33,028 bases of DNA from an uncultured virus (IMG/VR IMGVR_UViG_3300045940_000149). Taxonomy: Duplodnaviria > Heunggongvirae > Uroviricota > Caudoviricetes. The notes beneath the pieces are model-generated. The model was not told where the DNA came from. It saw only the letters and a program-made list of their open reading frames with translations, and ran no database searches. This document shows, piece by piece, positions 3,632 to 30,185 of the stretch. The stretch lies in the IMG/VR virus record IMGVR_UViG_3300045940_000149; one strand, 5' to 3'. The position numbers were made by a program, and so were the translations under genes. Numbering within the stretch: the first letter of the stretch is position 1; each line of letters begins with the position of its first letter.

Positions 3632-5021
3632 TTGCATAGTCCTTCGCCGGTTTCGGCTCGGGCTTGGGTTCGGGCTTCTCTTCGGTGATCTTCTGCGCAG
3701 CAGACGACGGCTGTCCGGGTGACGGCGGCGCGGCAGGAATTGCTGCCGCAGCCGAAAGCGGGACAACCTGCTGCTGCACTCTCGGCTCCGATCCATGCGG
3801 TACGGAATCGTAGCCTTCGAGATTTCGGGCCTCGTTCGGAGCCATGACGCCGCCCTGCACACCGCGCACCAGCGCGTCGATGCGATCCTTGAAGGCGGTG
3901 CGCAGCAATGCTGCGGTATCGAACTCCACGTACTCGTCGGGCTGACCGCGCAACTCGAACAGCAGGCCGAATGATTCCTCGATGTGGTTCAGCGCAAAGC
4001 CGAGACCGGTGGCGATCCACGATTGCATCATCATCTCGGTGGACGATGCCGGTCCGCCGAGCCCAAGGATCTGCAACGGAACGCGGAAGGCGAGCGCGAT
4101 CTTCTGATCGGTCAGCTTCATCACTTCCGCCAGCTCGGAGTCCTTCGGGCTCTGCCCCCACGGCTGCACCTTCAGCCCGGCGGTCAGGATCGGAACGCCA
4201 CCGGAGCACAGCCCCTTGGCCTGCTCGTTCCAGCGATCCCGCAGCGCCGCCGTCTGCTCGGGCGAGAGCACCAGATCGGTGGACAGCACGGCGCTCGGCC
4301 GCGCTTGGTTCATGTAGAACTGGATCTGCTGATCGAGGATCGCCGACGATGCCGCCAGATCGGCCAGCGCCGCAGTCAATGGCGACTCGCCCAACAACGG
4401 GCGCGGATGCCGTTTGCCGCTGTGCAGCCGGATGTGCAGCACGTCGCGCATCGGCACCAGCGTCTCTTCGTAACCGAGCTGATAGCCGAGCCGGTAATCG
4501 ATCACGTCATTGCCGCCCAAGCGATAGAACACATCGCCGGTCTGGCGCGCGACCATCGGAGTGGACTGGCGCGGGTCCATCAGGTGCAATTCGACGATCT
4601 CGTAGCGATCATTGCGCACCGCCAGCGCATAGGCATTGCCGTCGAGATAGAGCGAGCGGGTGGCATTGAGCATGAAGTCGCTCATGCTCTGGTAGTAGTT
4701 CGGCTTGCGCAGCACGCGCGAGAGCGACGAGTTGATGATCCGGTCGCGTCCGCCCTTGGTGTTCGCGCGCCAGTGATCCCCCGGGCACATTGCAACGGTC
4801 TGTGCGTAGGCCGAGACGCACGCCTCGACCATGGCCGACTGACTCGATCGGCTTTCGACATCGTATCCGTTCTGCCACCAATTCCAGTACTGACCGGCCT
4901 CGGCGCTGAGCCAGCCGCCCGTGACCGGAAGATGGTACGGACCGGGGCGATATTCGCCTTCGGCGGCGCGCTGAACCAACGCGCCGCCGAGACGAGATAT
5001 GAGCCTACGAACTCTGCTCAT
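3561..5021 (-). CDS. Phage portal protein, HK97 family
   Basis: VEACV, LRKPNYYQS, LYLDGNAYA, DVLHIR, GESPL, ARPSAVL, IALAFRVP, GVMAPNEARNLEG motifs. Confidence 0.95.
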   Translation of the reverse strand: MSRVRRLISRLGGALVQRAAEGEYRPGPYHLPVTGGWLSAEAGQYWNWWQNGYDVESRSSQSAMVEACVSAYAQTVAMCPGDHWRANTKGGRDRIINSSLSRVLRKPNYYQSMSDFMLNATRSLYLDGNAYALAVRNDRYEIVELHLMDPRQSTPMVARQTGDVFYRLGGNDVIDYRLGYQLGYEETLVPMRDVLHIRLHSGKRHPRPLLGESPLTAALADLAASSAILDQQIQFYMNQARPSAVLSTDLVLSPEQTAALRDRWNEQAKGLCSGGVPILTAGLKVQPWGQSPKDSELAEVMKLTDQKIALAFRVPLQILGLGGPASSTEMMMQSWIATGLGFALNHIEESFGLLFELRGQPDEYVEFDTAALLRTAFKDRIDALVRGVQGGVMAPNEARNLEGYDSVPHGSEPRVQQQVVPLSAAAAIPAAPPSPGQPSSAAQKITEEKPEPKPEPKPAKDYANDLQREIRNIRSAAERIARRRTA

Positions 5022-5338: not shown

Positions 5339-5415
5339 GATTTGGCACACGGAGCTGTACGCAAAGCGAACAAACGCGAACAAAATGTTCCGTTTGCCAA
5401 ACCGTTTGCCAAATC
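5339..5415. repeat. Tandem plus inverted 12-bp repeat after capsid stop
   Basis: CCGTTTGCCAAA at 5390-5401 and 5402-5413; inverted copy TTTGGCACACGG (11/12) at 5341-5352; CGAACAAA twice inside. Confidence 0.7.
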
Positions 5416-7669
5416 ACCACGTGACCGCGGTGAGCCAAGAGACGGTGCCGGTGCGCCTGAGAGCCCAATTCAGAGGAAGGATGAGCCTCAGAGCGAGCGA
5501 ATCCGTCTGCCACAACGAACGCGTCGGATCGGCAGCGGTGGTGCCCGCGACGATCGGCAGCGGAGTCGTATCCTCCATATGAAGCGTCGCCTGATCGCTG
5601 ATCTCGAAGCGAGGGGCTTCGCCTCCGACCACCACGAAGTCCGCAGCGTCGATGCAGATCACGGTGGAGACCGGCACGGTGCCGGACGTGATCAGCTTGG
5701 CACCGCGCAACCGCCCGGCCGCCACTTCGTCGGCAAACGGGAACAGCCCGCCCGGGACTGGTGGCTGGATCAGGCTGATGCTCAGCGCCTGCTGCGGGTT
5801 CATGATGAAGGCCATGTTGCGGATGTTGCCGTTGGTGGCCGTCAGCAGTGCGCCGGTGAGCTGCTTGATATCGCCCACCAGTGCGGCGAACCCGCCGCCC
5901 GCGGTCGGCGTGAGACCGACCACGCCGTTGCGAATGCCAGCCGGACGGATGGCGGTCGCCGCGTTGCTGTCGAGCAGCACCGAGTCGATCGACACCGCGG
6001 TGTCCTCTTGGATCGCGTTGCGCAGCAAGCCCTCGATCGCGGGCACCGAATGCTCGTCAATCTCTCTGGACCAACTGGTGATCACGGCCATTTTCTTGGG
6101 GGTCAAGAGCACCGACGAGAATGCGGCCTGACGGACCGGGATCGGCTGACCTTCACCGACGAACGATCCCGCGATGGTCGGCGTCGCCGCCCGAGTCGGA
6201 ACGGCGATGCGACCGTTGCGCCCGAAGCTCAGCGACATGCCGAGTGCCGACAACTGCGGAAACACCGCCTGCGGCTGCAGGGTTTCCATGAACGACGCGT
6301 TGACCTGCTGGACCAGCTCGGCCGCCCAGCCCGCAACCGTGGTCAACGCTGGAGCGCTTGCCGCCTTGGCGCAGTAATCGACGATCACCTTGGTGGCTTC
6401 GTCGTTGCCGTAAATCTTCTGTCGGCAAACGTCGATGCTGTCGCCGGTGACCTTCGACATATAGCGCACGGTGCCCGCGCGAACGAGATATTCGAGCGGG
6501 TCCATCTTGCGCACCGGCAGGCCGAACGGCCGCTTGGCGGTATCGACGCTGCCGCCATTCTTCACGACGGTGCCGCCACCGTTACCGCCGTCGCCGCCGC
6601 CGCTGGCGTTGTTGGCCGCGCTGGCCAGCCTCGCTTCGGCGTCACGCAGAGCGCCAAGCCCCTTCTCTTCCTGCGTGATCTTGGCATTGAGTTCGTTGGT
6701 GAGCGTGATCTGCTCGTCGGTGACGGCAGTGTCATCGACGGACTTCAGATGCTCGGTGAGCTGGTCACGCAAGTTCAGCAACCGGGCCTGTGCGTCTGTG
6801 ACGCGTTGCGCCAGTGTAGTCATGGCTTTGGACTTTCCACTTCGAGACGTGTCGGCGTGCTTGCCGTGAGCGCCCCGGCGAGCGTTCCCGTTTCCCTTGC
6901 CGTGCTTGGCAAAAACGAGATCGATCGTCCCGGACGAAACGCGGAGTGACTTGGCGACCGCCAGAGCGTTGGGGTTGGCTGGCACCGCGACCAGTGAGGT
7001 CTCGATCAGCTCGCAACGCTTGTAGGTGATGCCGCCCATCGGCTCCGACGACTTGCGCGGTTCACTGTCGATCGGACGGAAGCCGACCGAAGTGGCACGC
7101 AAGATTCCTGCATCGACCAGCTTGCGGATCTCGTCGATGCGAGCGGAGGTTCCCTCGGGCGCGAGCTGCAGATGCCCGCGCAGAGAATTGCCTTCGATCC
7201 ACAACGACTTCCACATGCCGATCACAAAATCCGGATTGTGATTGAAGAGAGCCACGGGATTTTTTCGAAAGTTCGTAAGATCCCAGCCCTCGGCCACGAT
7301 CACGTCGCCCATCCGATCGGGCGTGTCGTCGCTCAGGATGAACATCATCCCGCTCTCGCTCGGCGACGCGTGCGTCTTGTGCTTGAGGCGACGGCCGCTG
7401 GCGGACTTCTCGCCCTCGTCTTCCCAGATCAGGTGGCACTCTTCTTCGTCGCCACCTTCATCGATGCAGCGTTCGATGAAATCGTTGTAGTCCTCGCCGG
7501 GCTCTGGCTCACAGTGCCCGCCCGCTTCGAGGTATCCCTTCTGCCCGTACATGCTGATGCAGGCTGCGACCGCCTGATCCTTCTCGCGCTTCCCGTCACC
7601 CATCATCTCGGGGACGCAGCGGCTGAGAAAATCCGATCGGCTCTCGCCATCCTTTGGCTTCATCGGCAT
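5414..7669 (-). CDS. Prohead protease (HK97-type) - major capsid protein fusion
   Basis: Protease motifs DRMGDVI, NPVALFNH, SVGFRP, ELIETSLVAVPANPNAL; coiled-coil delta domain; capsid motifs FVGEGQPIP, LTPKKMAVIT, SLWQTDSLALR; AGGAG SD. Confidence 0.95.
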   Translation of the reverse strand: MPMKPKDGESRSDFLSRCVPEMMGDGKREKDQAVAACISMYGQKGYLEAGGHCEPEPGEDYNDFIERCIDEGGDEEECHLIWEDEGEKSASGRRLKHKTHASPSESGMMFILSDDTPDRMGDVIVAEGWDLTNFRKNPVALFNHNPDFVIGMWKSLWIEGNSLRGHLQLAPEGTSARIDEIRKLVDAGILRATSVGFRPIDSEPRKSSEPMGGITYKRCELIETSLVAVPANPNALAVAKSLRVSSGTIDLVFAKHGKGNGNARRGAHGKHADTSRSGKSKAMTTLAQRVTDAQARLLNLRDQLTEHLKSVDDTAVTDEQITLTNELNAKITQEEKGLGALRDAEARLASAANNASGGGDGGNGGGTVVKNGGSVDTAKRPFGLPVRKMDPLEYLVRAGTVRYMSKVTGDSIDVCRQKIYGNDEATKVIVDYCAKAASAPALTTVAGWAAELVQQVNASFMETLQPQAVFPQLSALGMSLSFGRNGRIAVPTRAATPTIAGSFVGEGQPIPVRQAAFSSVLLTPKKMAVITSWSREIDEHSVPAIEGLLRNAIQEDTAVSIDSVLLDSNAATAIRPAGIRNGVVGLTPTAGGGFAALVGDIKQLTGALLTATNGNIRNMAFIMNPQQALSISLIQPPVPGGLFPFADEVAAGRLRGAKLITSGTVPVSTVICIDAADFVVVGGEAPRFEISDQATLHMEDTTPLPIVAGTTAADPTRSLWQTDSLALRLILPLNWALRRTGTVSWLTAVTW

Positions 7670-7694
7670 GGAACTCTCCTACTTTTATTTCCGC

Positions 7695-7711
7695 TAGGCT
7701 CCCACGCCCTA
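7695..7711. promoter_or_regulatory. TAGG-N9-CCTA palindromic operator (capsid-proximal)
   Basis: TAGGCTCCCACGCCCTA, 25 bp upstream of the capsid ATG. Confidence 0.6.
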
Positions 7712-7739
7712 CTTGAAAGTAGGCCACCATGGCCTATAT
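7712..7739 (+). promoter_or_regulatory. Island promoter P1 with operator 7720-7736
   Basis: CTTGAA-N16-CTATAT; contains TAGGCCA-CCA-TGGCCTA (perfect 7-bp arms). Confidence 0.75.
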
Positions 7740-7954
7740 AAGTAGTGGAAGGAGGGAAGCCGGAAAGGCCGGAAGAGATTGCGGAACGGACTGAGGATGC
7801 GTGCTTGGGGTCCGGGGAGACGGGATTGCCTACGCACCGGGCCACACAACCTCCCCTCCGTCTGACGGCAGCGGCAGGAACGCGGGATCTAGAGCCCCCG
7901 CTACGAGACCGGTCCGACTGCCGATTTGAGCCCCCGGCCCGCGGCCCAAGAGCG

Positions 7955-8170
7955 ATGTTCTTCGGAATCTGGACGGTCATCGGTGGTGTTGCTGGTTGGC
8001 TCAAGGACGCCAACGGCGACATCTGGAAGTTCGCAACCGCCAAGGACGCCGCGGCGGTTGCTCACGCAAAGCGGGTCAGAACCAAGCACCGCGCCATGGT
8101 CAATTTCTCGGTCGCTGCGCTGATCCCGCTCGCCACCGCCAAGGTGGCTGGGAACCGGGTGCTCATGTGA
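7955..8170 (+). CDS. Hypothetical protein (71 aa, MFFGIWTVIGG...)
   Basis: ATG 7955 after AAGAG; codon usage like other island genes; the upstream part of the ORF looks like structured leader. Confidence 0.6.
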   Translation: MFFGIWTVIGGVAGWLKDANGDIWKFATAKDAAAVAHAKRVRTKHRAMVNFSVAALIPLATAKVAGNRVLM

Positions 8171-8186
8171 GGAAGGAAGCAAGCTG

Positions 8187-8759
8187 ATGGGTTGGACGTA
8201 TACCTACCGCCCGAAGGGCGTGACCACCGCCGACTGGTTCGAGCGCGAGTTCGGGATGAAGTTCAAGGCCACGGCCACCAAGGCCGGGGTGTTCTACGCC
8301 GTCATCGAGCTTGATGCCGAGAAGGAAGCCCGGCTGGTGCCGGACGCCAACGGCAAGGTTCGGGTCGCGCTGGTGCTCCTGACCAAGTGGGCCAAGGGCG
8401 ACTACAACTTCGGCTGGAAGGACATGGACGAGTTCATGGGCCCGGTCGAGAGCACCGCGCCCGCCGCGGTCCTCGATTTCTTGTCGCCGATCGCCGACGA
8501 CGCCAAGGGCGACGGTGCCAAGTACGCACGCGACTGGCGCGCTCGCTGCCGGGCCAACATCGACCGGCGCAAGGCCGCCCCCAAGCTCCGGGCCGGGATG
8601 GTCGTCAAGCTCCCCGCGCCGATGGAGTTCCGCAACGGGGCGAAGATCGACACCTTCACGGTCGTGAAGCGTGGCCGGAAGGTTCTGTTCCGGAACGACT
8701 ACGTGCTCTACCGGCTGACCGCCCGAGCCCGCGAAAATTTGTTGGTCGTCACCGGATAG
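8187..8759 (+). CDS. DUF6927-like protein
   Basis: MGW start; FYAV; FGWKDMDEFMGP...P..VLDFLSP...ARDWRARCR signature recalled for this plasmid/phage family. Confidence 0.7.
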   Translation: MGWTYTYRPKGVTTADWFEREFGMKFKATATKAGVFYAVIELDAEKEARLVPDANGKVRVALVLLTKWAKGDYNFGWKDMDEFMGPVESTAPAAVLDFLSPIADDAKGDGAKYARDWRARCRANIDRRKAAPKLRAGMVVKLPAPMEFRNGAKIDTFTVVKRGRKVLFRNDYVLYRLTARARENLLVVTG

Positions 8760-8793
8760 GCCCCCTTGCCCTATAGGCCACCACGCCCTATAT
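8757..8793 (+). promoter_or_regulatory. Island promoter P2 with tandem operators 8757-8773 and 8774-8790
   Basis: CTTGCC(8765)-N17-CTATAT(8788); TAGGCCCCCTTGCCCTA directly followed by TAGGCCACCACGCCCTA. Confidence 0.8.
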
Positions 8794-8870
8794 AAGTAGT
8801 GGAGAGAGGGAGAGCCGGATGGCGGTGGCCACCGCGTGACACGCCCGGCTCTCCGGAAAGGGAAGGACGA

Positions 8871-9314
8871 ATGACTGCCGTTGAATATGGTTCGCTCCGC
8901 GAGAAGATCGCCGCGGAAACCAAGGCCCGCAAGGCCCGCTACGCCGCCTTCGAGGCCGCCTACGCCAAGGCCGCCGCCGCCGCCAAGGCCGCGGGCGAGG
9001 CCGCCAAGCCCCGCGCCATGGTCGTGTTCGACGCCGATCTCGCCGGGAAGCCGGTCGAGGGCGGCAACCGCTGGTACGAAGCGGAAGGGGTCTGCGGGTT
9101 CGCGTGGGTAACGGTCTATCCCGGCACGTCGAGCTTCGCCAAGTGGCTGGTCAAGAACAAGCTGGCCCGGGCGGCCTACCGCGGCGGCGTCGATATCTGG
9201 ATCTCTGACTTCGGTCAGTCGCTGGAGCGGAAGGAAGCCGCCGCCCGCGCGATGGCGGAAGTGCTGACCACCGAGCTGGGCGTCAAAGCCTACGCCGGAT
9301 CTCGGATGGACTGA
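8871..9314 (+). CDS. Conserved phage hypothetical protein (CGFAWV motif)
   Basis: ATG 8871 with AAGGA SD; GVCGFAWV...QSLERKEAAARA...YAGSRMD. Confidence 0.75.
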   Translation: MTAVEYGSLREKIAAETKARKARYAAFEAAYAKAAAAAKAAGEAAKPRAMVVFDADLAGKPVEGGNRWYEAEGVCGFAWVTVYPGTSSFAKWLVKNKLARAAYRGGVDIWISDFGQSLERKEAAARAMAEVLTTELGVKAYAGSRMD

Positions 9315-9320
9315 ACCACC

Positions 9321-9344
9321 GGCCGCCGGGTTCGCCCGGCGGTC
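9321..9344 (+). other. GC-rich intergenic hairpin with UUCG loop
   Basis: GGCCGCCGGG-TTCG-CCCGGCGGTC; no U tract. Confidence 0.6.
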
Positions 9345-9363
9345 ACACCTGAAAGGACACGAC

Positions 9364-9555
9364 GTGTTCGGCAACCGCACGCTCAAAGAGATCAACCGAG
9401 AGCTACGCGAGACCCGCGCCGAGATGCGCGCCAAGGGCATCAGGCGAACGTCCTGCTTCAACGGCGGGCTCAGCGGCGAGGCATACAGCCTGAACGCCCG
9501 CATGTTCCGACTCGAAACTGAACGGCAAGACGCCATCAAGAAAGGTGACCGATGA
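9364..9555 (+). CDS. Hypothetical protein (63 aa)
   Basis: GTG start with AAAGGA SD; ATGA overlap with next gene. Confidence 0.7.
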   Translation: MFGNRTLKEINRELRETRAEMRAKGIRRTSCFNGGLSGEAYSLNARMFRLETERQDAIKKGDR

Positions 9556-9881
9556 CCGACAAGACTGCCAAGATCCGCGAATTGAACGACCTGTTGCGCG
9601 GCACGTTCCTGCCGCAGCTCGGCCGGGTGGTTCTCACCGAAGGCATCCGCGACCACGACAAGCGCGAGGACTTCCTGACCAAGGTGCGCGAGTTCAAGGA
9701 CTTCACGGACGGCGACGACCCGTACGGCGAGCACGACTTCGGCGCGATCGAGGTCAACGGCGAGAAGGCGTTCTTCAAGATCGACTACTACGACAAGGCA
9801 TTCGAGTACGGCAGCGAAGACCCTGCCGATCCCAAGGTCACGGGCCGGGTGCTGACCATCATGCTGGCAGCGGAGTACTGA
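9552..9881 (+). CDS. DUF3768 family protein
   Basis: IRELND..R, DPYGEHDFG, FFKIDYYD, GSEDPADP..T.RVLTIMLA.EY. Confidence 0.9.
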   Translation: MTDKTAKIRELNDLLRGTFLPQLGRVVLTEGIRDHDKREDFLTKVREFKDFTDGDDPYGEHDFGAIEVNGEKAFFKIDYYDKAFEYGSEDPADPKVTGRVLTIMLAAEY

Positions 9882-9884
9882 GCG

Positions 9885-10193
9885 ATGCGCAAGTTCGAAG
9901 TCTGGTACATGCGGCCCGAGCACTTCCGCGACGGCATCTGCGGGCTCGGCAAGCCGATCGCGGCCGATCTCGGTAAGACCCACATCCGCCTGCGCGAGAT
10001 CGAAGCGGACAACCTCGAAGCGGTGTTCGTCGAGATGCAGGGCGAGCGCTGGTCGCCCAACGGCGAAGCCTTCGGCATGATCAAGGCGCTCGGGTTGCGG
10101 CATACCAGCATGTCGGTCGGCGACGTGGCGATCGACCTTGCCACCCGGGAAGTCTGGAAGGTTGCCCGGTTCGGCTTCGAGAAAGTAGAGTGA
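9885..10193 (+). CDS. YodL-like domain protein
   Basis: LEAVF..MQ...GLRHTSMSVGDV motif. Confidence 0.65.
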   Translation: MRKFEVWYMRPEHFRDGICGLGKPIAADLGKTHIRLREIEADNLEAVFVEMQGERWSPNGEAFGMIKALGLRHTSMSVGDVAIDLATREVWKVARFGFEKVE

Positions 10194-10201
10194 AAGCACC
10201 C

Positions 10202-10230
10202 CTTGCGGGATAGGCCATTACGCCCTATAT
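10202..10230 (+). promoter_or_regulatory. Island promoter P3 with operator 10211-10227
   Basis: CTTGCG-N17-CTATAT; TAGGCCATTACGCCCTA. Confidence 0.8.
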
Positions 10231-10246
10231 AAGGGGTGGAGGGAAA

Positions 10247-11044
10247 ATGACCACCGCCGCCCTGTTCACCCGAGCTGGCACCGCCCACGGCGGTGCCGTT
10301 TACCTCACCGGCAAGGGTAAGCCCGCCTTTCAGAGGCACCGGACCTGCCACCGCTGCGGTGGCGCTGGCGGTGCCGACGTTTGGGCGGCCACCGGCTGGA
10401 CCTGCTACGGCTGCGGCGGCACCGGCCACAAGGGTCTCGAAACCGTCCGGCTCTACACCGAAGCCGAGCTGGCCAAGCTGAACGCCACCGCCGCGAAGCG
10501 GGCGGCGAAGAAGGCCGCGGTCGCCGCCGAGCTGGCCGCCGCCGCCGCCGCGGAAGCCGACGCTAAGCGGGCGGGCTTCCTCGAAACCTACGGCGAGCTG
10601 CTGGCCAAGGCGGAAGCCTTCAAGGGCCGGAACGAATTCATCGCCGACGTGCTGCGCAAGGCGCATGAGAAGGCCGAGCTGACCGAGAAGCAGGCTGCCG
10701 CGCTCGCCGCCGCGATCGAGCGGATCGCCACCGAAGACGCCGTCAAGGCCGCGAGCGGCCACGTCGGCAAGGTCGGCGAGCGGATCACCGCCGCGGTCAC
10801 GGTCGAGCGGGTCGCGAGCTACGCGCGGGCCGCGTTCGGGTTCCGCAATAGCGAGGAAACGGTCTGGATCGTGACCATGCGCGACGCCGCCGGGAACGCG
10901 ATCGTGAGCAAGACCCCCCGGTTCCACGCCGAGAAGGGCGAGAAGTTCCTGCTGACTGCCACCGTGAAAGAGCACGGCGAATACAACGGCGAGAAGCAGA
11001 CGGTGGTCATGCGGGTGAAGACCGCAGACCTTGCTGCAGAGTGA
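10247..11044 (+). CDS. Zn-finger (CxxCGGxG x2) + helical + putative OB-fold nucleic-acid-binding protein
   Basis: CHRCGGAG...CYGCGGTG; Ala-rich helix; HVGKVGERIT...VKEHGEYNGEKQTV; GGAGG SD. Confidence 0.7.
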   Translation: MTTAALFTRAGTAHGGAVYLTGKGKPAFQRHRTCHRCGGAGGADVWAATGWTCYGCGGTGHKGLETVRLYTEAELAKLNATAAKRAAKKAAVAAELAAAAAAEADAKRAGFLETYGELLAKAEAFKGRNEFIADVLRKAHEKAELTEKQAAALAAAIERIATEDAVKAASGHVGKVGERITAAVTVERVASYARAAFGFRNSEETVWIVTMRDAAGNAIVSKTPRFHAEKGEKFLLTATVKEHGEYNGEKQTVVMRVKTADLAAE

Positions 11045-11059
11045 AGGGAGAAGGAAGCG

Positions 11060-11455
11060 ATGAAACTCGGAACACAGACCGGCTCTTTGACGAACCACGT
11101 TCTGGCCCGCGCGGTGAAGGGCCAGCCCGACGCAACGGTCGGCATGGGCGCGACCATGCTGTCTTGGACCGACCGCTACCCCGGCACGGTGATCGGCATC
11201 GCCCGCGAGCGCGGCGCGACGGTGCTCACGGTGCGCGAGGACAACGCCACCCGGACCGACAAGAACGGGTTCAGCGAGAGCCAGACCTACCTGTTCGAGC
11301 CCAACGAGAACGGCCGCGTCCACCTGTTCAAGATGAACAAGCACGGCATGTGGGACGAAGTCGCCCGCAATGAGAAGACCGGGCGGCTGGTCAAGACCGG
11401 AGGCTACGGCCTGCGGATCGGCGAGCGCGCCAAGTACCACGACTTCAGCTTCTGA
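11060..11455 (+). CDS. Conserved phage hypothetical protein (131 aa)
   Basis: AAGGA SD; VGMGAT...TDRYPGTVI...LRIGER..YHDFSF. Confidence 0.75.
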   Translation: MKLGTQTGSLTNHVLARAVKGQPDATVGMGATMLSWTDRYPGTVIGIARERGATVLTVREDNATRTDKNGFSESQTYLFEPNENGRVHLFKMNKHGMWDEVARNEKTGRLVKTGGYGLRIGERAKYHDFSF

Positions 11456-11467
11456 ACGGAGGGATGG

Positions 11468-11653
11468 ATGAAACCAAAGACCTACACCGTGGTCGAGAAC
11501 GCCGGATACGAAGGCGAGCGGGTGGTGCGCGAGGGCATCAAGCATCTCGCTGAAGCTCTGGCGTGGATGACCAACAAGTACAGCGACGACGAGATCGAGG
11601 CGTTGCACGTGCTGGTCCGCAAGGAATACGCGGACGGAACGTCGGAGTACTGA
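11468..11653 (+). CDS. Hypothetical protein (61 aa)
   Basis: GGAGG SD; compact packing. Confidence 0.7.
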   Translation: MKPKTYTVVENAGYEGERVVREGIKHLAEALAWMTNKYSDDEIEALHVLVRKEYADGTSEY

Positions 11654-11656
11654 GCG

Positions 11657-11893
11657 ATGTGGCGCGAGCGCTGGAATAGCTGCCGGTTCTGCAAGGGGCC
11701 GATGGTGCCGTCCGACGAGCTGGTCAAGTACGGCACCCGGCACTACGCGCATCCGCGCTGCTACTTCGATGCAGGCAAGCCGCTCGCCGCGCTGCCGCTC
11801 CACGAAATCGAGAAGTTGCCCTACTTCCTGCTGAAGGAACGCGGCCTGCTCGATCAGGCGCAAGAGCTGACAAAGAGAAGGTGGAAAGCATGA
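11657..11893 (+). CDS. Putative Zn-binding hypothetical protein (78 aa)
   Basis: CRFC...HYAHPRC; GGAG SD. Confidence 0.7.
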   Translation: MWRERWNSCRFCKGPMVPSDELVKYGTRHYAHPRCYFDAGKPLAALPLHEIEKLPYFLLKERGLLDQAQELTKRRWKA

Positions 11894-12081
11894 CCGACCG
11901 CTACCGAGCCAGCCCCTGCCCCTGCGGCTCTGGCCGACCGTCCACATGGGCATACGACGCCCGCGGGATTCCGCTCTGCCGGACCTGCGTGGTCTGCCAC
12001 AAGCGCAAGATGGCCGGTTACCGGCCGGACGTGCTGACCGACCCCAATTACTGGAGCGACGAGCCGATCGATGCTGATTAG
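11890..12081 (+). CDS. Zn-ribbon hypothetical protein (63 aa)
   Basis: ATGA overlap; CPCGSG...YDARGIPLCRTCVVC...YRPDVL. Confidence 0.7.
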   Translation: MTDRYRASPCPCGSGRPSTWAYDARGIPLCRTCVVCHKRKMAGYRPDVLTDPNYWSDEPIDAD

Positions 12082-12352
12082 AAACTCGCTGCACGCCTTA
12101 ACCCTGCCGGTCGTCCACCTGAACGGCACGCACCGGGACGATCTCTTCAACGGCTACATCGCCGCGATCCACGCCCTTCGCGAGGCCGAGAAGGCGATAG
12201 CCGCCAGCGCGCCCAACGGGCGCGACTACTACCCGTCCGGACCAACGGCCATCAACGAAGCGCTTGCCGAGCATCGTGCCCGGCTGACCGTTATTCACAA
12301 GATAATTGCGGAATTGGAACATATTGCCATGCACGTCCAAGATAGTCCGTAG
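12071..12352 (+). CDS. Hypothetical protein (93 aa)
   Basis: LPVVHLNGT...APNGRDYYP; its TAG stop is the first 3 nt of an operator. Confidence 0.7.
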   Translation: MLIRNSLHALTLPVVHLNGTHRDDLFNGYIAAIHALREAEKAIAASAPNGRDYYPSGPTAINEALAEHRARLTVIHKIIAELEHIAMHVQDSP

Positions 12353-12386
12353 GCCCCCTTGCCCTATAGGCCATTACGCCCTATAT
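12350..12386 (+). promoter_or_regulatory. Island promoter P4 with tandem operators 12350-12366 and 12367-12383
   Basis: CTTGCC(12358)-N17-CTATAT(12381); nearly identical to P2. Confidence 0.8.
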
Positions 12387-12517
12387 GTATGGTGGAGGGA
12401 GAAATGGCCAAGACCGAAGTCGGAACCATCCTTCCCGCAGGCGCGGGGCGAACCGCCGCGTCCAAGATGGGGACGGGAGGCACGAACCTCCCGAGCCCCG
12501 CACATCTGGAAAGAACC

Positions 12518-12649
12518 ATGAAGACTATCTGGAAGGCAGAGCTGAAGAAGAAGCTCTGGATCTACCTCGAATACACCGAGTTTGGTCTGTTCGTCGTGGA
12601 CTATTGGGGCGGCAGCAAGTGGCTGGTGCCCGGAACGGAGGTCTACTGA
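12518..12649 (+). CDS. Small hypothetical protein (43 aa; alternative in-frame start 12404)
   Basis: MKTIWKAELKKKLWIYLEY...; TGATG overlap with next gene. Confidence 0.55.
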   Translation: MKTIWKAELKKKLWIYLEYTEFGLFVVDYWGGSKWLVPGTEVY

Positions 12650-12810
12650 TGTTGCCCGGTTGGATGATCGAAGAGCTGCGCCGCCGCCGCGAGCGCGAAG
12701 ACCGCGAGTTCGAGGAACGGCGACTGCCGCTCTACCTCCCGATCCCGGTGCCGCCTCCGGAGAAGACGCCGGAACGCAACGGCGAGATCGACTTCGAGAT
12801 CCGGTTTTAA
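12649..12810 (+). CDS. Small hypothetical protein (53 aa, MLPGWMIEELRRRR...)
   Basis: GGAGG SD, TGATG coupling. Confidence 0.65.
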   Translation: MLPGWMIEELRRRREREDREFEERRLPLYLPIPVPPPEKTPERNGEIDFEIRF

Positions 12811-12824
12811 GCGAGAGGACTGAC

Positions 12825-13043
12825 ATGACCTATGTCTACGTCGATGTGAACCGCCTGCAGCGCCAGATCCACGTCTACGGGCTCGACGACGAAGGCAACG
12901 ACATCTTCGATCAGGGCGAGTTCGAGTGGGGCGTCGAGGGCGACGCCTACCGCGACTACGCCGAAGCCCGCCGCGCCGCCGATCGCTTCGCCGCCAAGAA
13001 GGCGAAAGAGCACGGCTGCGATTGGGGCGCGAACGAAGAGTGA
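12825..13043 (+). CDS. Small acidic hypothetical protein (72 aa)
   Basis: GAGGA SD; MTYVYVDVNRLQRQIHVYGLDDEG. Confidence 0.7.
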   Translation: MTYVYVDVNRLQRQIHVYGLDDEGNDIFDQGEFEWGVEGDAYRDYAEARRAADRFAAKKAKEHGCDWGANEE

Positions 13044-13057
13044 AGGGAGATCATCTG

Positions 13058-13243
13058 ATGTGCGATACCTGCCACGACAAGCGCTACCTGATTGTCGAGC
13101 GAGCCGATGGCCGCGAAGCGATCGAGCGGTGCGATGCCTGCGCTCTCGACATAACCGATGCTGGTGCTGCCATCCTCGCTGCCCGCGACGGTTACCTGAC
13201 CGCGCTGGCCTATCCCTTCACCATGACGAAAGGAACGAAATGA
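13058..13243 (+). CDS. Small Zn-ribbon protein (61 aa)
   Basis: GGGAG SD; CDTC...ERCDAC; ATGA overlap. Confidence 0.65.
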   Translation: MCDTCHDKRYLIVERADGREAIERCDACALDITDAGAAILAARDGYLTALAYPFTMTKGTK

Positions 13244-13845
13244 CTACCCGCTACCTGAGCTGCGCCGAGACTGCCAAGCTGATCCGGGTCGCCCTGAAGA
13301 AGGCATTCCCGGGCGTCAAATTCTCGGTCCGATCGCACACCTACTCCGGTGGAGCCTCGATCCGAGTCGGCTGGACGGACGGCCCGACCACCAAGATGGT
13401 CGAGGCGGTCACCAACGCTTACGCCGGTGGCGGCTTCGACGGCATGATCGACCTGAAGTACTCGAAGTACGCATGGCTGATGCCGGACGGTTCGGCGACG
13501 TTCGCCGAGACCAAGGGCACCGCGAGTTCCATGGGCATGGTCGAGTCCCGATCGGAGCTGCAGCCTTCGTTCAGGGCCGAGAAGGTCCGGTTCGGCTCCG
13601 ACTATGTATTTACCGACCGGAAGTACTCCGAAGAGTTCGGCCGCCGGGCGTTCGAGGCCGCCTGCCGCAGGCACGGCGTTAACCCTGCCGAGTTCAAGCT
13701 GCTGCATTCCAGCGGGTTCGGCCCCTACATCGACCGAGCGACCGATCGCCGGATCAACGGCGGGAGCTGGGATATGTCCGATCTCTTGCATCAGGAACTC
13801 GTCCGGCGATGTGTTCACAACCCTGAGCAGGCTCTTGCGAGCTAG
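13240..13845 (+). CDS. LPD29 (large polyvalent protein-associated domain 29)-like protein
   Basis: AKLIRVALKKAFPGVKFSVRS...SIRVGWTDGPT...GGFDGMID; AAGGA SD, ATG 13240. Confidence 0.8.
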   Translation: MTTRYLSCAETAKLIRVALKKAFPGVKFSVRSHTYSGGASIRVGWTDGPTTKMVEAVTNAYAGGGFDGMIDLKYSKYAWLMPDGSATFAETKGTASSMGMVESRSELQPSFRAEKVRFGSDYVFTDRKYSEEFGRRAFEAACRRHGVNPAEFKLLHSSGFGPYIDRATDRRINGGSWDMSDLLHQELVRRCVHNPEQALAS

Positions 13846-13862
13846 GCCATTACGTCCTAGGA
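13834..13862 (+). promoter_or_regulatory. Island promoter P5 (degenerate -10) with operator 13843-13859, upstream of HTH gene
   Basis: CTTGCG-N17-CTAGGA; TAGGCCATTACGTCCTA. Confidence 0.65.
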
Positions 13863-13886
13863 GTTGCCGCAGATGCGGAGGTTCCC

Positions 13887-14156
13887 ATGGCCAAGCGCAA
13901 GACCGCTACCAAGAAGAAGACCGCGAAGCGCGTCATGACCAAAGAACAGTACCGAGAAGCGATCGACGCGCTCGACCTGAATCAAGTTCAGGCGGGCAGG
14001 TTCATCGGCGTCGGCCCGCGCACGTCGCGGCGCTGGGCGCTGGGCGAGGCCCCGATCCCGCGCGCCACCGCCATGCTGCTGCGGCTGATGGTGCGCAAGA
14101 AGCATTCGCCGGAAGACGTGGCGAGGATGGATTACGAGCGGCATCTTGAAATGTAG
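13887..14156 (+). CDS. XRE/Cro-type helix-turn-helix regulator
   Basis: MTKEQYREAIDALDLNQVQAGRFIGVGPRTSRRWALGEAPIP; basic N-terminal arm; GGAGG SD. Confidence 0.85.
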   Translation: MAKRKTATKKKTAKRVMTKEQYREAIDALDLNQVQAGRFIGVGPRTSRRWALGEAPIPRATAMLLRLMVRKKHSPEDVARMDYERHLEM

Positions 14157-14173
14157 GCCATTACGCCCTATAT
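14145..14173 (+). promoter_or_regulatory. Island promoter P6 with operator 14154-14170
   Basis: CTTGAA-N17-CTATAT; TAGGCCATTACGCCCTA. Confidence 0.8.
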
Positions 14174-14198
14174 TAGTATTGGAAGGGAGGTAAGACTA

Positions 14199-14402
14199 AT
14201 GACCCGCCTGATCAGAGACGGACCGGTGACGGCCCGGCTCGTTAAAGTCGTCGGAGCGAACGGCACGCTGATGGGGTTGGTTCCCGCCAACCTGACCTTG
14301 CGCGAGGTCCGCGTGATGTTCGGTAACCATACGATCCGATGGAACGGTCATCTGGCCTGCTGGGAGAGCAAAGAGACCGAAACCACGGCCAACGCGGCCT
14401 AG
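14199..14402 (+). CDS. Hypothetical protein (67 aa)
   Basis: GGAGGT SD directly after P6; stop overlaps the convergent gene's stop (CTAG). Confidence 0.65.
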   Translation: MTRLIRDGPVTARLVKVVGANGTLMGLVPANLTLREVRVMFGNHTIRWNGHLACWESKETETTANAA

Positions 14403-14578
14403 GACTTCCCGGCCTTGGCCTTGTCCTCGGCGATCCCCTGCCTGATCGCCTGCATCAACGGATCATCCGGCTTCGGAGGGTTAAATCCCTCGCCATAGGT
14501 GTCGTCCGCGTAGAGCGGACCGGCTGGCGTCTCGACGATGAGCGGCCCGCGGTCGGTGCGCTTTGGCAATGGCTTCAT
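14399..14578 (-). CDS. Small Pro/Asp-rich protein (59 aa) downstream of zeta-toxin gene
   Basis: Hand-translated MKPLPKRTDRGPLIVETPAGPLYADDTYGEGFNPPKPDDPLMQAIRQGIAEDKAKAGKS; ATG 3 nt after upstream stop; just below the ORF-track cutoff. Confidence 0.6.
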   Translation of the reverse strand: MKPLPKRTDRGPLIVETPAGPLYADDTYGEGFNPPKPDDPLMQAIRQGIAEDKAKAGKS

Positions 14579-14581
14579 GGC

Positions 14582-15694
14582 CTACTTCCCTTTTCCACCT
14601 TCGGCGACCAGCTTGAGCTTGTCCCCGTTGTTATCAAACAATTTCCAGCTCCGGAACTCCGACTTCAGCGAGTCGAATGTCTTCTCGTTGGTCGTGCTGG
14701 CGATCGTCACTTCCGGCGGCACGAACCGCCCGCTGTAGTCGCCCTTCTTGTGCCGGAACCGGCCGACCGTCCGCACGGCCGATTCGATCGGCGACGTGCT
14801 GACGAAGTACCCGTCCGCCTCGTAACCCGCCTGCTGGTAGGCCGCAAGCCGCCCGGCGGCGGTTTTTTGCGTCTTCATAGTCGAATCGAAGATGACGTTG
14901 ATCTTCAGCTCGCGGGCCATCTCTTCGATACGATCGCCAATCTCTTGCGCCTCGCCGTTGAACAGGCCAGCCAGCCGGGGCTCGTATCCGGGCAAATGTT
15001 CCTGCACGTCGTCTGCGGATATATATAGGCTCGATTCCATAATTTCAGCCGGTAGCGACGTGGTTTTGCCGCTGGCTGGTCGCCCACCGACCAGCGTCAC
15101 CAATGGCTTCTCGCCTGCTGGTGGCGTGTACTTGGCAATGTTCTCCGGGCTGAACAGCTTCATCTTGTTCTTGATAATGTCGGCGTGCACTGCCACGCGT
15201 TCCGGAGTGTACTTGCCGTCCGGTTGCTTGAATTGCGCCATGGTCGGAATGCGACCTTCCATATCGCGCTTGGCCTGATCGATCTCTTCGATATCACGCG
15301 GGCTCAGCCGCGCCCGCACTTCTTCCATCGTCGGCGTTTTGTAGCTCTCGTAAATCTCGGTGGCGGTCGGGTTCTTCCCGTACCCGCTCTCGGTGTCCTC
15401 GGCGAGACTGTCGTCGCCGCCCCCGCCGTCCGTCCAGCGTCCGCGCTCGTCGCGCGGATGCTTGCTCTCGTCGAACTCGCGCAGCAACACCTGCGCTCTG
15501 GCCTTGGCCCGCTTCCATTGGATCGATCGCTTCTCGGCTTCGCGCTTGGCGGGATCGGGCACGTAGAAGTGCGATCCGCCGCGGGCGTCCATGAAGGTGA
15601 TTTGCACCAAGGTGGCGTCGGCCTCGCTCGCCGGATCGAACTCGCCCTTGAAGTAGGCCAGCGTGGCCGGGCGTCCATCGACGGTGGCGGTCAT
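14582..15694 (-). CDS. PRDExGRWT-motif effector 5: zeta-toxin-like P-loop kinase
   Basis: ATG 15694 (GGAGG SD, ATGA overlap); FDESKHPRDERGRWTD; GGRPASGKTT Walker A, ISADDV, NVIFDSTM, R....GRFVP. Confidence 0.85.
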   Translation of the reverse strand: MTATVDGRPATLAYFKGEFDPASEADATLVQITFMDARGGSHFYVPDPAKREAEKRSIQWKRAKARAQVLLREFDESKHPRDERGRWTDGGGGDDSLAEDTESGYGKNPTATEIYESYKTPTMEEVRARLSPRDIEEIDQAKRDMEGRIPTMAQFKQPDGKYTPERVAVHADIIKNKMKLFSPENIAKYTPPAGEKPLVTLVGGRPASGKTTSLPAEIMESSLYISADDVQEHLPGYEPRLAGLFNGEAQEIGDRIEEMARELKINVIFDSTMKTQKTAAGRLAAYQQAGYEADGYFVSTSPIESAVRTVGRFRHKKGDYSGRFVPPEVTIASTTNEKTFDSLKSEFRSWKLFDNNGDKLKLVAEGGKGK

Positions 15695-17496
15695 TTCTGC
15701 TGCCTCCGCTTGCGCTCGATGATTTCGTCGGCTTCCTGCTTGAACGGCTCGATGCCGGGGAGATGGCTCAGCTCGTCGAGTTCCTTCCGATAGCTGATCC
15801 ACTCGTCCAGCGGCTCGTACTCGCCGGGCGGATCGATGAAGGCATTCGGCACCGGGTACTTCTCCCAATCGATATCGATCGATCTGCCTGCGAACGTCGG
15901 CGGCGGCCCGGCGCGTTTCTGCATGTCGGCGACCAGTGCGTTGTACTCCTTGCTCAGCCGATCGATATCGCGCTGGAGATCGGGCGCGAGGCGGAAGCCG
16001 TAATCGAACCAGCCGTTGCGTCCGAGCGCATCGCTGACGGCATGGAAGAAAATCTTCGTACCCCGATCCGGCTCCATCTTTTCCGACGTGATCTCATCGA
16101 CCAGAAACTCGTCGGCGTCGGTGTACTGCGCCCCCCTCGCCTTCTTGAATGCGCCACGAATGTCATGCCTCGCTGGTCGGCTGGCGGCATAGATGCTGCC
16201 GTCGTGGCCGAGCGCCCGCACGCCGTAACATCCCGGCTTGGTGCTGAGAATGGCCAGATCCTGCACCGAGAGCGGGCTGGAGTTCGGGTGATTGTGATCA
16301 ACCTCGATCGCGCGGGACGGATCGTCCAGCGCCTTTCCCAGCTCGGGCCCGAAGCCGACTTCCTTTTCGGTACCTTCCTCGATCTCCGGTGACAGCTCGC
16401 CGGTGGCCAGATCGATCCAGCGCAGGTGCTCGGTGTCGGTGCGCCTGCCTTCTCGCAGCACGTAATCGGCCGATATCTGCCGGTTGATCTCCAGCTTGGG
16501 ATCGGCCTCCCCGAATCCAAACCGCGGCTGCTCCGGTCTCGGTGGCGGCGGCGGTTCCGGTGGCTTGGCGGCGTCGATCGCCTCCAGCTCCCGGTCCTGC
16601 GTCGCCTTGCCGTCGTCGTACTCGTCCACCCGCTCGCCCTGCCCAGCGGTATAGGTCGTCGAGGCCGGGTCGTAGACCATGAACACCACGTCCGGCTCGC
16701 CGTTGTTGAACTTCTGGTAGGTCTTCTTGTCCCAGCCGGGCGGTGCTTCCTTGTCGTCCCACGCGAGGCGCGCGACCACCCGCAGGCCGTGCTTGGCGTA
16801 GAGGTCCGGCAGGACGGTATCGAATGCGTCGGCGCGTCGGCCGCCTTGCTGTACGGCGAGGTCGATCGCCGCGCCAGCCACACCGGGCTGATCCGAGTTC
16901 GGGTTCTTGAACAGCGAGACGATATCGTCGCCCTTGAGGGCGAAGCCGTAGTCGCCGTTCGGCGACACGAACGTCCGCATGTACTCGTAGGCTCTGGTCG
17001 GGTAGGCGTGGACCGACGCCCCGTACGGATTGGAATGTTTGGCCGATTGGATGGCGACGCTGAAGCGCCCGGCACCGTCAGCGTTCAGCTCATGGAATGT
17101 GTGACTGCCGCGGGTCCAGACCGCGACTACATTCCGGCTGCTTTCAACATCCGTAGGGCTTCTTCGATCGAAAGGCCGGGGTGATTTTTCACCGTGGACA
17201 GCACCAGCTCCCGGTCTTCCTTCGTCAAGTCCTTCAGCAAGTCCTGATCCGCCTGCGTCGGTCCATCGGCCATATTCGTCTCTCGGCTGGTTCGGGTCGA
17301 ACCGCAGGGTAGATATGGCCCTTCCCCGAGCGTTTTGCCATGCCGCCTGCTTGTTGGCGCGCGAGCGCCCCCATGCGCTGAAGCAGGCCGCCGCCACGGC
17401 GTCGTTGCTCCACCCGGGCTCGGCGCGACCGGTTTCGAAGCAGCACCGGTTCATGAAATCGGTACGGGTCTCTTGCGGGTGCGGATCAACGGGCAT
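15691..17496 (-). CDS. PRDExGRWT-motif effector 4: protease-like Cys leader + GNAT-like + JAB/MPN domain
   Basis: N-terminus resembles prohead protease leader; FDPNQPRDEYGRWTD; DIVSLF...AVQQGGRRADAFDTVLPDLYAKHG; TEH...HNHPNSSPLSVQD (JAB HxH-S-D). Confidence 0.75.
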   Translation of the reverse strand: MPVDPHPQETRTDFMNRCCFETGRAEPGWSNDAVAAACFSAWGRSRANKQAAWQNARGRAISTLRFDPNQPRDEYGRWTDAGGSGLAEGLDEGRPGAGAVHGEKSPRPFDRRSPTDVESSRNVVAVWTRGSHTFHELNADGAGRFSVAIQSAKHSNPYGASVHAYPTRAYEYMRTFVSPNGDYGFALKGDDIVSLFKNPNSDQPGVAGAAIDLAVQQGGRRADAFDTVLPDLYAKHGLRVVARLAWDDKEAPPGWDKKTYQKFNNGEPDVVFMVYDPASTTYTAGQGERVDEYDDGKATQDRELEAIDAAKPPEPPPPPRPEQPRFGFGEADPKLEINRQISADYVLREGRRTDTEHLRWIDLATGELSPEIEEGTEKEVGFGPELGKALDDPSRAIEVDHNHPNSSPLSVQDLAILSTKPGCYGVRALGHDGSIYAASRPARHDIRGAFKKARGAQYTDADEFLVDEITSEKMEPDRGTKIFFHAVSDALGRNGWFDYGFRLAPDLQRDIDRLSKEYNALVADMQKRAGPPPTFAGRSIDIDWEKYPVPNAFIDPPGEYEPLDEWISYRKELDELSHLPGIEPFKQEADEIIERKRRQQK

Positions 17497-22708: not shown

Positions 22709-22727
22709 AGGTAGCGCCGCCGCCGCC

Positions 22728-23798: not shown

Positions 23799-24301
23799 GC
23801 CACGTCGCTTTCAGAGACGCGCTCGGCCCACGCCACATCGACCTCTTCGACACCGAAGACCTCGCCGCCGAAGCCCGCGGTGACGCCGCGACCCTTGCCC
23901 TGCCCGAAGTATCCGCTGCTGCCGAATGCGTACTCGGGCCCGGACGCGTTGCCGGTGGCGTAGTCGGTGATGTTGCTTCCGGCGAGAACGTCATCGAGCA
24001 GCGGCTGCAGCTCGGCGCGCTGCTTGTCGGTGACGCCGCGCGCCGCCTTGTTGTGGGTCGCCTTCGGGAAGTAGCTGCCGGACAAGGTCTTGCTGATCGA
24101 CTGCCCGCGCGAGGCGGCGCGGTTCAGGATGGTTTCCATGAACGCCTGTCGTGCCTGATCGCCCTGCCCGCCGACCTCGGCGAGCGTGTACGCATAGAGC
24201 TTGTCGCGCACGGCGGCATTCTCCAGCTCCTTGGCCTGCTCGGCGCGAATCTGCGCGAGCGAGCTGGGCGCGGGTGATGGTGTCGGGAGAGATGATCGCA
24301 C
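23795..24301 (-). CDS. SleB/Hydrolase_2-like cell wall lytic transglycosylase
   Basis: TLAEVGGQG...AFMETILNRA...YF...LDDVLAGSNITDYAT resembles the SleB catalytic-Glu region. Confidence 0.6.
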   Translation of the reverse strand: MRSSLPTPSPAPSSLAQIRAEQAKELENAAVRDKLYAYTLAEVGGQGDQARQAFMETILNRAASRGQSISKTLSGSYFPKATHNKAARGVTDKQRAELQPLLDDVLAGSNITDYATGNASGPEYAFGSSGYFGQGKGRGVTAGFGGEVFGVEEVDVAWAERVSESDVA

Positions 24302-28677: not shown

Positions 28678-28758
28678 TCACTTGCAACTATCAAATTTCC
28701 TGCCACCCCCTCCCCTCACCAAGTGGGCGAGCCCTTGGCCTTCCTATTGAGGAGGTAT

Positions 28759-29298: not shown

Positions 29299-29308
29299 GG
29301 TTCGCCTC

Positions 29309-30038: not shown

Positions 30039-30185
30039 TGTTCGGGAGGAAAGGAAGACCGCGGGACGGTGCAGTGGAACGTGAGGGGGGCTCTACGTTT
30101 TCGCCCCGCGGTCAACGCGCTGCGAGGTCGGGAATCCCGGCTGTACACGGAATCCCCCTACGAAACCGCAGCTTACGGTCGGCGC

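Follow-up and report, generated by a model that had tools for sequence, protein, structure and literature searches.

It is an established principle that an operator placed within a core promoter blocks polymerase. In phage P1, the large lysogeny repressor C1 binds many dispersed, asymmetric 17-bp sites at promoters. Controller (C) proteins of restriction-modification systems bind paired palindromes at their own promoters; acting 5' of the -35, they first activate and later repress. The antitoxins MqsA and HigA2 bind palindromes in their own promoters, and lambda-type Cro, a small helix-turn-helix (HTH) dimer, has palindromic operators of 17 bp, which overlap early promoters and in part lie next to each other. 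Operons of the anti-CRISPR-associated (Aca) regulators, as passages of PMC9410906 describe them, have an inverted repeat in the core promoter, often with a second similar repeat beside it, carry variable genes behind a strong consensus promoter and are under negative feedback. Here, we analyzed the IMG/VR virus record IMGVR_UViG_3300045940_000149, a stretch of 33,028 nucleotides that we call the window, and in particular an island of small plus-strand genes in it. The six promoters of this island each contain the palindrome TAGG-N9-CCTA, and one of its genes (13887..14156, plus strand) encodes an XRE-type HTH protein of 89 amino acids (aa), the proposed repressor.

We propose that this protein is probably an Aca-like autorepressor, whose operator-promoter unit has been multiplied into a genome-wide early regulon of at least 11 promoters, a reading built on sequence comparison and structure models. 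An earlier note on this DNA had already suggested an Aca-like regulon. In favor of that suggestion we found host-type promoters, a palindrome that appears selected, linkage of the site to the HTH gene, a weak promoter in front of this gene and an Aca-like layout; against it stand the lack of any match to a known anti-CRISPR (acr) gene and of a significant sequence match to the solved Aca1, Aca2 and Aca10.

Promoters and palindromes of the island

An exact scan of the window for TAGG-N9-CCTA (TAGGNNNNNNNNNCCTA) returned nine matches, at 7695, 7720, 8757, 8774, 10211, 12350, 12367, 13843 and 14154, the same nine that the earlier note had listed. All of them are confined to 7695-14170, and the rest of the window has none. 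In dinucleotide-preserving shuffles the mean was 0.06 and the maximum 1, and none of 100 shuffles reached nine. The G+C content of the window is 63.2% and not about 65% as had been assumed. The six promoters, the tandem operators over the -35 at 8757 and 12350, and the weakest -10 before the HTH gene were likewise confirmed in the sequence.

The CTTG boxes of the six promoters (P1 to P6) start at 7712, 8765, 10202, 12358, 13834 and 14145. CTTG is present in all six and CTATAT in five, 16-17 nt past the CTTGnn hexamer, and the operator of each promoter starts 4-5 bases 3' of CTTG and runs into the -10. The exception is the promoter at 13834, 5' of the HTH gene, which has CTAGGA in place of CTATAT, the weakest -10 of the six. 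In each of the pairs 8757/8774 and 12350/12367, two 17-bp units abut, and the first of them contains the -35. Most -10 boxes are followed by GGTGGAGGGAG and then ATG, so that promoter and ribosome site together form a repeated unit of about 50 bases. Genes and sites are packed very tightly: at 8757, 12350, 13843 and 14154 the TAG of the left half of the operator doubles as the stop codon of the preceding gene, the last of these being the HTH gene.

The elements are arranged as follows, all on the plus strand, with scores from a weight matrix built on the 11 promoters of this class. An orphan operator, TAGGCTCCCACGCCCTA (7695..7711), matches the pattern exactly and ends where the CTTG of P1 begins; no -10 follows it, and the divergent capsid-protease gene (minus strand) has its start codon 26 nt away, at 7669. 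P1 (7712..7739; 42.5 bits) has CTTGAA at 7712-7717, the operator TAGGCCACCATGGCCTA at 7720-7736, which is the sole copy with perfect 7-bp arms, and CTATAT at 7734-7739. Its unit contains 7955-8170 and 8187-8759 (DUF6927) behind a leader of about 210 nt; this leader (7742-7960) matched no Rfam family, and its fold was weaker than those of shuffles (z +2.5). P2 (8757..8793; 52.2 bits) carries tandem operators, with the -35 CTTGCC (8765-8770) within 8757-8773, the copy at 8774-8790 as spacer and CTATAT at 8788-8793, and it precedes 8871-9314, 9364-9555, 9552-9881 (DUF3768) and 9885-10193. P3 (10202..10230; 51.6 bits) consists of CTTGCG, an operator at 10211-10227 and CTATAT at 10225-10230, with the ribosome site GGTGGAGGGA 3' of CTATAT and then ATG at 10247; six genes (10247-12352) form its unit. 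P4 (12350..12386; 52.8 bits) is again tandem, with operators at 12350-12366 (containing the -35 CTTGCC) and 12367-12383 and with CTATAT at 12381-12386, followed by five genes (12404-13845), the last of which has an LPD29 domain. P5, the promoter of the HTH gene (13834..13862), combines CTTGCG, the operator TAGGCCATTACGTCCTA at 13843-13859 and the degenerate -10, and its 33.5 bits are the lowest score of the 11. P6 (14145..14173; 52.9 bits), with CTTGAA, an operator at 14154-14170 and CTATAT at 14168-14173, precedes a single gene of 67 aa (14199-14402). Outside these units, CCCTTGAAG-TAGGCCAGCGTGGCCGG at 15654-15670, inside a minus-strand coding sequence, resembles the first two-thirds of the promoter (CTTG plus a left half-site) without a -10, and may be a decayed copy or chance.

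A motif scan beyond the window was run on IMG/VR record G001 (77254 bases), which is 100% identical to window 1-28700, while window 28701-33028 has no counterpart in it. The scan gave 14 sites, namely the nine of the island and five more, 35-50 kb away, in promoters of the same build and all in the same orientation. These five promoters read CTTG, 4-5 bases and TAGGCC-N5-GnCCTATAT, and belong to another block of small genes on the plus strand; four are followed by a ribosome site and ATG, and the fifth (6972, reverse complement) has a long leader. With the weight matrix, the 11 promoters scored 33.5-53.2 bits and nothing else in G001 or the window scored above 12 bits. The absence of sites outside the island, which the earlier note had described, is true of the window but not of G001, and a regulon confined to the island is contradicted by the 11 promoters of the class in G001.

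As for the polymerase that might read this class, the island promoters (CTTGnn-N16/17-CTATAT) have both hexamers at the correct spacing for a rhizobial sigma-70, for which a passage of PMC2873474 gives the S. meliloti consensus CTTGAC-N17-CTATAT. The fit to the RpoH1 and RpoH2 promoters of S. meliloti is equally good (CTTGAA-N15-16-CCTATAT and CTTGCC-N15-16-CCTATCT, as quoted in a passage of PMC4843759). By its consensus, the class appears to be recognized by host RNA polymerase, with sigma-70 and RpoH equally compatible. An E. coli-type promoter scan, which requires T as the final base of the -10, for that reason called only P6 among the six; many or most alphaproteobacterial promoters lack this T, according to part of PMC8407463. 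Contigs from four soil metatranscriptome runs cover the island and the flanking virion genes alike, one of them (7415-8261) spanning P1 from the capsid gene; they are uninformative on start sites and may reflect DNA carry-over. Neither these nor the contigs that start at 7740 and 14182, near the expected P1 and P6 starts and from one study each, were counted as evidence.

The refined palindrome, TAGGnC-N5-GnCCTA, is 17 bp long, fills the spacer between -35 and -10 and overlaps the first bases of the -10; as a 17-mer, TAGGCCATTACGCCCTA is the predicted target of the HTH protein. Its half-site centers are 11 bp apart, or one helix turn, the spacing of an HTH dimer that contacts a single face of the DNA. 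TAGG, the left half, plays no part in the promoter; the right half shares three bases with the -10, and the copies over the -35 and the orphan at 7695 retain CCTA where it has no -10 function. For further comparison we pooled 91 distinct promoter-context sites from all fetched loci, which are related by descent and, like all our comparative counts, were not corrected for shared ancestry. The positions that the search had left free are symmetric, with C6 in 86 and G12 in 87 of the 91 sites. Positions 5 and 13 are complementary in 40/91, compared with 25.8 in shuffles, of which 0/2000 reached 40; given the common descent of the sites, this difference is not a probability. In the window phage, the promoter-proximal half is usually GCCCTA. 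These patterns support the view that the palindrome behaves as a putative protein-binding site under selection. A blind count of all 4-bp palindromes per locus was dropped, as G+C-rich noise swamped the signal.

The same data bear on the alternative that the 35-bp unit is only a promoter, of a strong sigma-70 or an RpoH type, that was spread by recombination, its symmetry being a by-product with no repressor behind it. CCTA is indeed largely part of the -10, the boxes do not discriminate between sigma-70 and the RpoH1/RpoH2 consensus quoted in PMC4843759, and the close likeness of the copies within a phage makes recent duplication plausible. A mere promoter would, however, leave several features unaccounted for: TAGG and C6 are retained across phages with 30-60% protein identity while the five central bases vary freely, CCTA persists in the -35 units and in the orphan, where there is no -10, positions 5 and 13 co-vary in the manner of a palindrome, and the pattern predicts one particular gene in 19 of 24 contigs (see below). 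We therefore regard this alternative as quite unlikely.

The 89-aa protein and its linkage to the site

The proposed repressor has a Lys/Arg-rich N-terminal tail (residues 1-16), an HTH at about 33-52 with the recognition helix RTSRRW, and a conserved helix at 59-71 (AMLLRLMV) that is predicted to be the dimer interface. Its profile matches were PHROG 14076 'transcriptional regulator' (1.6e-7), the MqsA-family profile TIGR03830 (2.5e-7; 30.6 bits against a cut-off of 61.8) and PF15731 (1.4e-3; 19.2 bits against a cut-off of 30); it did not match PF01381 (HTH_3), and no XRE/Cro-C1 profile scored above its curated cut-off. The AlphaFold model, made with a 46-row alignment, had a predicted local distance difference test (pLDDT) value of 91 and six helices in an XRE-type helical bundle, so that as modeled the protein has the five-helix XRE fold. 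In a Foldseek search against the PDB, the best rows were all small XRE repressors, namely C.Kpn2I (4yba, E 0.017), HigA2, Aca2, MqsA, Aca10 and Aca1 (E 0.017-0.12), and target-normalized template modeling (TM) scores were 0.6-0.8 for HigA2, MqsA-C, Aca10 and Aca1. In a sequence search of all PDB chains, which include Aca1, Aca2 and Aca10, none of these three matched significantly, and only Aca2 came up (E 0.89).

When two copies were predicted together, a symmetric dimer scored 0.70 compared with 0.47 for the best control. Among proteins of solved structure, 20 of 30 pairs attained this mark, and 1 of 23 single chains did. The dimer runs had at least 94% of contacts in common, the partner pLDDT was at least 78, and the interface comprised residues 58-73, 40-42 and 78-82; since the alignment was one that we had made ourselves and the PDB contains similar dimers, this result shows likeness and is not a proof. 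A large protein search gave nine homologues with an invariant RTSRRW and a conserved AxLLRLMV helix, and a protein atlas returned unnamed viral HTH clusters and RsaL-like or XRE clusters only. Two family alignments of the protein, A1 and A2, were built; A2 was too diverse for a genome scan, and A1 was used.

Linkage between protein and site was approached from both sides. Selection by the HTH gave 62 viral loci with a homologue, and in their 876 kb TAGG-N9-CCTA occurs 55 times and a control palindrome 13 times; almost all of the 55 stand in a TTGAC-spacer-TA context. From the DNA side, the tandem pattern TAGG-N5-TTGNCCTATAGG-N9-CCTA, in which 19 bases are fixed, selected 31 stretches from 24 viral contigs. 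An HTH homologue is encoded on 19 of these 24 contigs, in 18 cases within 6 kb and usually 0.03-2 kb downstream on the same strand; the 19th contig has two homologues farther off in the record. The five contigs without one are fragments, estimated at 9-21% of a genome. Sixteen motif loci, compared with crude calling of open reading frames (ORFs), have no protein family in common other than the HTH. Between promoter and HTH lie 0-5 genes; these, and the genes that follow the HTH, are unrelated among the 16, except in two near-identical contigs and one three-member cluster. The site also tends to follow the recognition helix, with TAGG sites at 22/46 loci of the RRW type and at 0/16 loci with another helix. 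Three of the latter 16 share the promoter build with TACGCn half-sites, single in L069 (RTSQSY) and tandem in L072 (RTSHGY) and L087 (RTGQNY).

Close relatives keep this arrangement. The exact 20-base promoter pattern gave 15 single matches in viral contigs, of which 12 looked like chance, one was a fragment of the window phage and two led to the records G002 and G003. G002 is syntenic with the window (capsid 58% and terminase 57% identical) and has seven exact sites, and the fragment G003 has six; a control pattern read backward found none in either. L059 has seven sites and L088 five. The usual form in G002 and G003 is a tandem pair, for example TAGGCCATATTGACCTA and TAGGCCATATTGCCCTA followed by TAT, with the -35 TTGACC inside the first unit. 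At the counterpart of P2 in G002 (13039/13056, before a 64%-identical homologue of 8871-9314), the tandem build is kept while the variable positions differ, and extra sites lie at the same boundary between capsid and island as the orphan at 7695. In many relatives we also observed a conserved element, GTAACA(T/A)TTCGTGAT, 2-4 bases 5' of the tandem operators (six promoters of L122, and L117, L126, L128, L131, L136-L138, L142, L144, L145, L147, L116 at 1318-1336, and G003). The window phage lacks it and has AAAGCACCC before CTTG; the element may serve as an UP element or as the target of a second factor.

The operator-bearing promoter of the HTH gene itself is present and weakened in four of five members of the clade. 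It reads CCTAGGAG in the window, CCTAGATAAG in L059, where the left half-site is degenerate, and CCTAGATCAG in L122, and in these three of the five phages the -10 reads CCTAG-. In G002, the promoter has a good CTATAT, but its left half-site is weakened to TTGG. A weakened promoter of this kind fits a low, self-limiting supply of the putative repressor.

As for cultured relatives, searches of phage records gave only short pieces for the island DNA, in seven records, and at most 32% identity for the capsid. The HTH had one match there, in the inducible Bradyrhizobium prophage OP596614, which carries a 53%-identical HTH and a tandem site at 39.3-41.8 kb. Homologues of the HTH in bacterial genomes are all alphaproteobacterial (Xanthobacteraceae, Rhizobium, Rhizobiales and Acetobacteraceae), and the two Xanthobacteraceae loci carry a TAGG site in promoter context. 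On this comparison, the same architecture of promoter, predicted site and HTH gene recurs across many phages and prophages, otherwise unrelated, of hosts of the Rhizobiales type.

Several observations weigh against a repressor that acts on this site. In the DNA fetched, 24/46 loci with an RRW-type HTH have no TAGG site, and none was found within 3 kb in 13 genomes of Rhizobium or unclassified Rhizobiales whose HTH has (L/I)TSRRW. L077 (RTSRRW) has a TACG-type palindrome 828 nt upstream, contrary to the relation between helix and site. The right half-site overlaps the -10 (C+CTATAT), so that part of its conservation is driven by the promoter, and the symmetry of positions 5 and 13 is broken in 10 of the 11 promoter sites of the window phage (GCCCTA, GTCCTA or GACCTA opposite TAGGCC). 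The dimer is a prediction, and the fold matches are weak by E-value, none in the Foldseek search of the PDB being at or below 0.001. Finally, G001 encodes a second XRE HTH (103 aa; PF01381, 2.3e-6; reverse complement 9386-9697, L018:7558-7869:-), which could be the binder instead.

The last point belongs to a wider alternative, in which the operator is real but is bound by this second HTH, by another early protein or by a host regulator, while the 13887-14156 protein acts otherwise. The second protein, of the HTH_3 family, sits in the other promoter block, and the lack of a nearby TAGG site at about half of the homologues with the same helix would also be explained. Yet across the 62 HTH-selected loci and the Bradyrhizobium phage locus L116, the only homologues of the second HTH were those in L055 and L056 (the motif-selected loci lay outside this search), the motif-selected loci share only the HTH of the 13887-14156 type, and a host factor would leave it unexplained that the pattern predicts a phage gene within 2 kb. 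We judge another binder to be unlikely.

The temperate relative raises a further alternative, in which the HTH is a maintenance repressor that silences the early promoters of a dormant phage, in lysogeny or a carrier state, and not a brake on lytic expression. Many dispersed operators at early promoters are the layout of P1 C1, and OP596614 is an inducible prophage with an integrase. Its module, however, lies behind lysis and tail-fiber genes, well away from both the integrase (1-996) and the pairs of divergent genes around 12-13 kb. In seven relatives, no conserved divergent repressor gene of the CI type stands beside the module, the divergent ORFs being lipase-like, a head-tail connector or of no family; at the island of the window, the divergent gene is that of the capsid-protease. 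Neither the window nor 73 scanned ORFs of G001, a crude gene call with gaps, yielded an integrase, partition or CI-like gene, and the HTH is made from the very promoter class that it would silence. A maintenance role is, in our view, very unlikely.

Genes of the island and of the surrounding phage

The plus-strand island comprises 19 genes at 7955..14402, in six units of 2, 4, 6, 5, 1 and 1, which agrees with the roughly 19 small proteins noted before. Its end is not at 14173, as given earlier, but at 14402, the stop of the 67-aa gene; minus-strand genes restart at 14399. Plus-strand ORFs at 14339-15793 were rejected as spurious because that region codes on the minus strand. Compared with Pfam, PHROGs and NCBIfam, the 19 proteins gave three DUF/LPD domains (DUF6927, DUF3768 and LPD29) and one HTH, and the rest matched nothing named. 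No anti-CRISPR or anti-defense family was found among them in these general libraries, which include no dedicated anti-CRISPR library, and four of the proteins had no match among PDB sequences.

The island lies antisense amid virion genes of the minus strand, for which gene calls outside the island are rough. All of the following are on that strand. The portal gene (3561-5021) comes after, and not before, a single 751-aa frame (5414-7669) that joins a prohead protease (Peptidase_S78) to the major capsid protein (Phage_capsid). On the other side, a protein with a Zeta-toxin-type P-loop kinase domain (14582-15695; PF06414, 1.2e-22) closes the block of large virion-side genes and is convergent with the last island gene. 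Between it and the terminase genes, six consecutive proteins of 601, 609, 493, 650, 356 and 168 aa (15691-24301) matched no Pfam family and gave a single weak PHROG match among them; L059 and L088 conserve two of them in part, and G002 matches portions of four. The large and small terminase subunits are at 25579-27264 and 28066-28503, and a collagen-repeat protein is encoded as well. The right end of the window carries an HNH nuclease (29658-30038), a NusG-like transcription antiterminator (30203-30706; PF02357, 1.5e-13; phrog_6386), which is a candidate driver of long minus-strand late transcripts, and an AAA_25 helicase (31692-32996). The sequencing runs that contain the island are soil metagenomes. 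The source is likely a tailed phage of the myovirus type that infects a soil alphaproteobacterium, and the host is probably a member of the Xanthobacteraceae/Rhizobiales.

Proposed regulation and comparison with known systems

In the Aca-like reading that we prefer, host polymerase would fire all promoters of the class on entry, as their fit to the consensus suggests. The HTH protein would accumulate from its own weak, operator-bearing promoter and from read-through from P4. Judging from the positions of the sites, its dimers would occupy the spacers, and the -35 or upstream copies where present, and exclude polymerase. The whole class, the HTH gene included, would then fall to a low level or shut off, in negative feedback as for Aca. 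As the island is oriented against its virion-gene neighbors on either side, its shutdown would, speculatively, also relieve head-on transcription ahead of or during the reading of the late genes. As part of the same explanation, we think it likely that the promoter, its operator or operators, a few variable genes and the HTH gene form an old mobile unit of Rhizobiales phages, and that in this clade the promoter-operator part was multiplied to make up the entire early program. Tentatively, and with less confidence than not, the cassette may be an undescribed Aca-like anchor that marks fast-changing counter-defense loci in Rhizobiales phages and prophages, present here in at least 11 copies, with one 89-aa protein timing the whole early program and clearing head-on transcription.

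A narrow search of the open-access literature found no description of this system of promoter, site and HTH, and no comparable anchor for phages of Bradyrhizobium or Rhizobium hosts. The analysis offers a concrete candidate pair of regulator and operator, an 89-aa protein and a 17-bp site, in soil phages with almost no gene of known function. If the Aca analogy is true, the HTH and the site are search handles for anti-defense genes in phages of Bradyrhizobium, Rhizobium and their kin. The multiplied unit would also be a compact, probably strong and repressible part, promoter plus ribosome site, for use in alphaproteobacteria.

Among the known systems, P1 C1 resembles the present case in that one phage repressor is proposed for many 17-bp sites, each at a promoter; here, however, the protein has 89 aa, the site is palindromic and no lysogeny genes were seen in the sequence covered. 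C proteins are also small XRE dimers, and C.Kpn2I was the best Foldseek match, but no restriction or methylase genes lie near the island and its sites fill the spacer. MqsA and HigA2 are related to the HTH through its best profile matches (TIGR03830 and PF15731) and close fold matches. In contrast to them, its profile scores fall below the cut-offs and it has no zinc-binding N-domain; nor has it a conserved toxin partner, because the neighbors differ among the 16 loci and no second family is shared. Unlike the lambda Cro region, the island has no divergent CI-type gene, and the module of the temperate relative lies outside its divergent early-gene region.

The closest likeness is to Aca, represented by Aca1 of JBD30 and Aca2 of ZF40. 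As in these systems, a small HTH protein, predicted here to be dimeric, is encoded in an operon with variable small genes, and its 89 aa are within the range of about 60-130 aa; Aca2, Aca10 and Aca1 are among its best fold matches. A repeat lies in the core promoter of its own operon, as in all six promoters of the island, with second copies at 7695, 8757 and 12350 and the same arrangement in relatives. The HTH is the conserved anchor in an accessory genome position, while its neighbors vary. The differences are that it has no significant sequence match to the solved Aca1, Aca2 and Aca10, that no known acr gene stands under the promoters, that the hosts are of the Rhizobiales type, and that a separate weak promoter serves the HTH gene. 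Above all, the putative control extends here over 11 promoters and tens of genes and not over one operon, which would make this phage a case of a single-operon autoregulator that has grown into a genome-wide early regulon.

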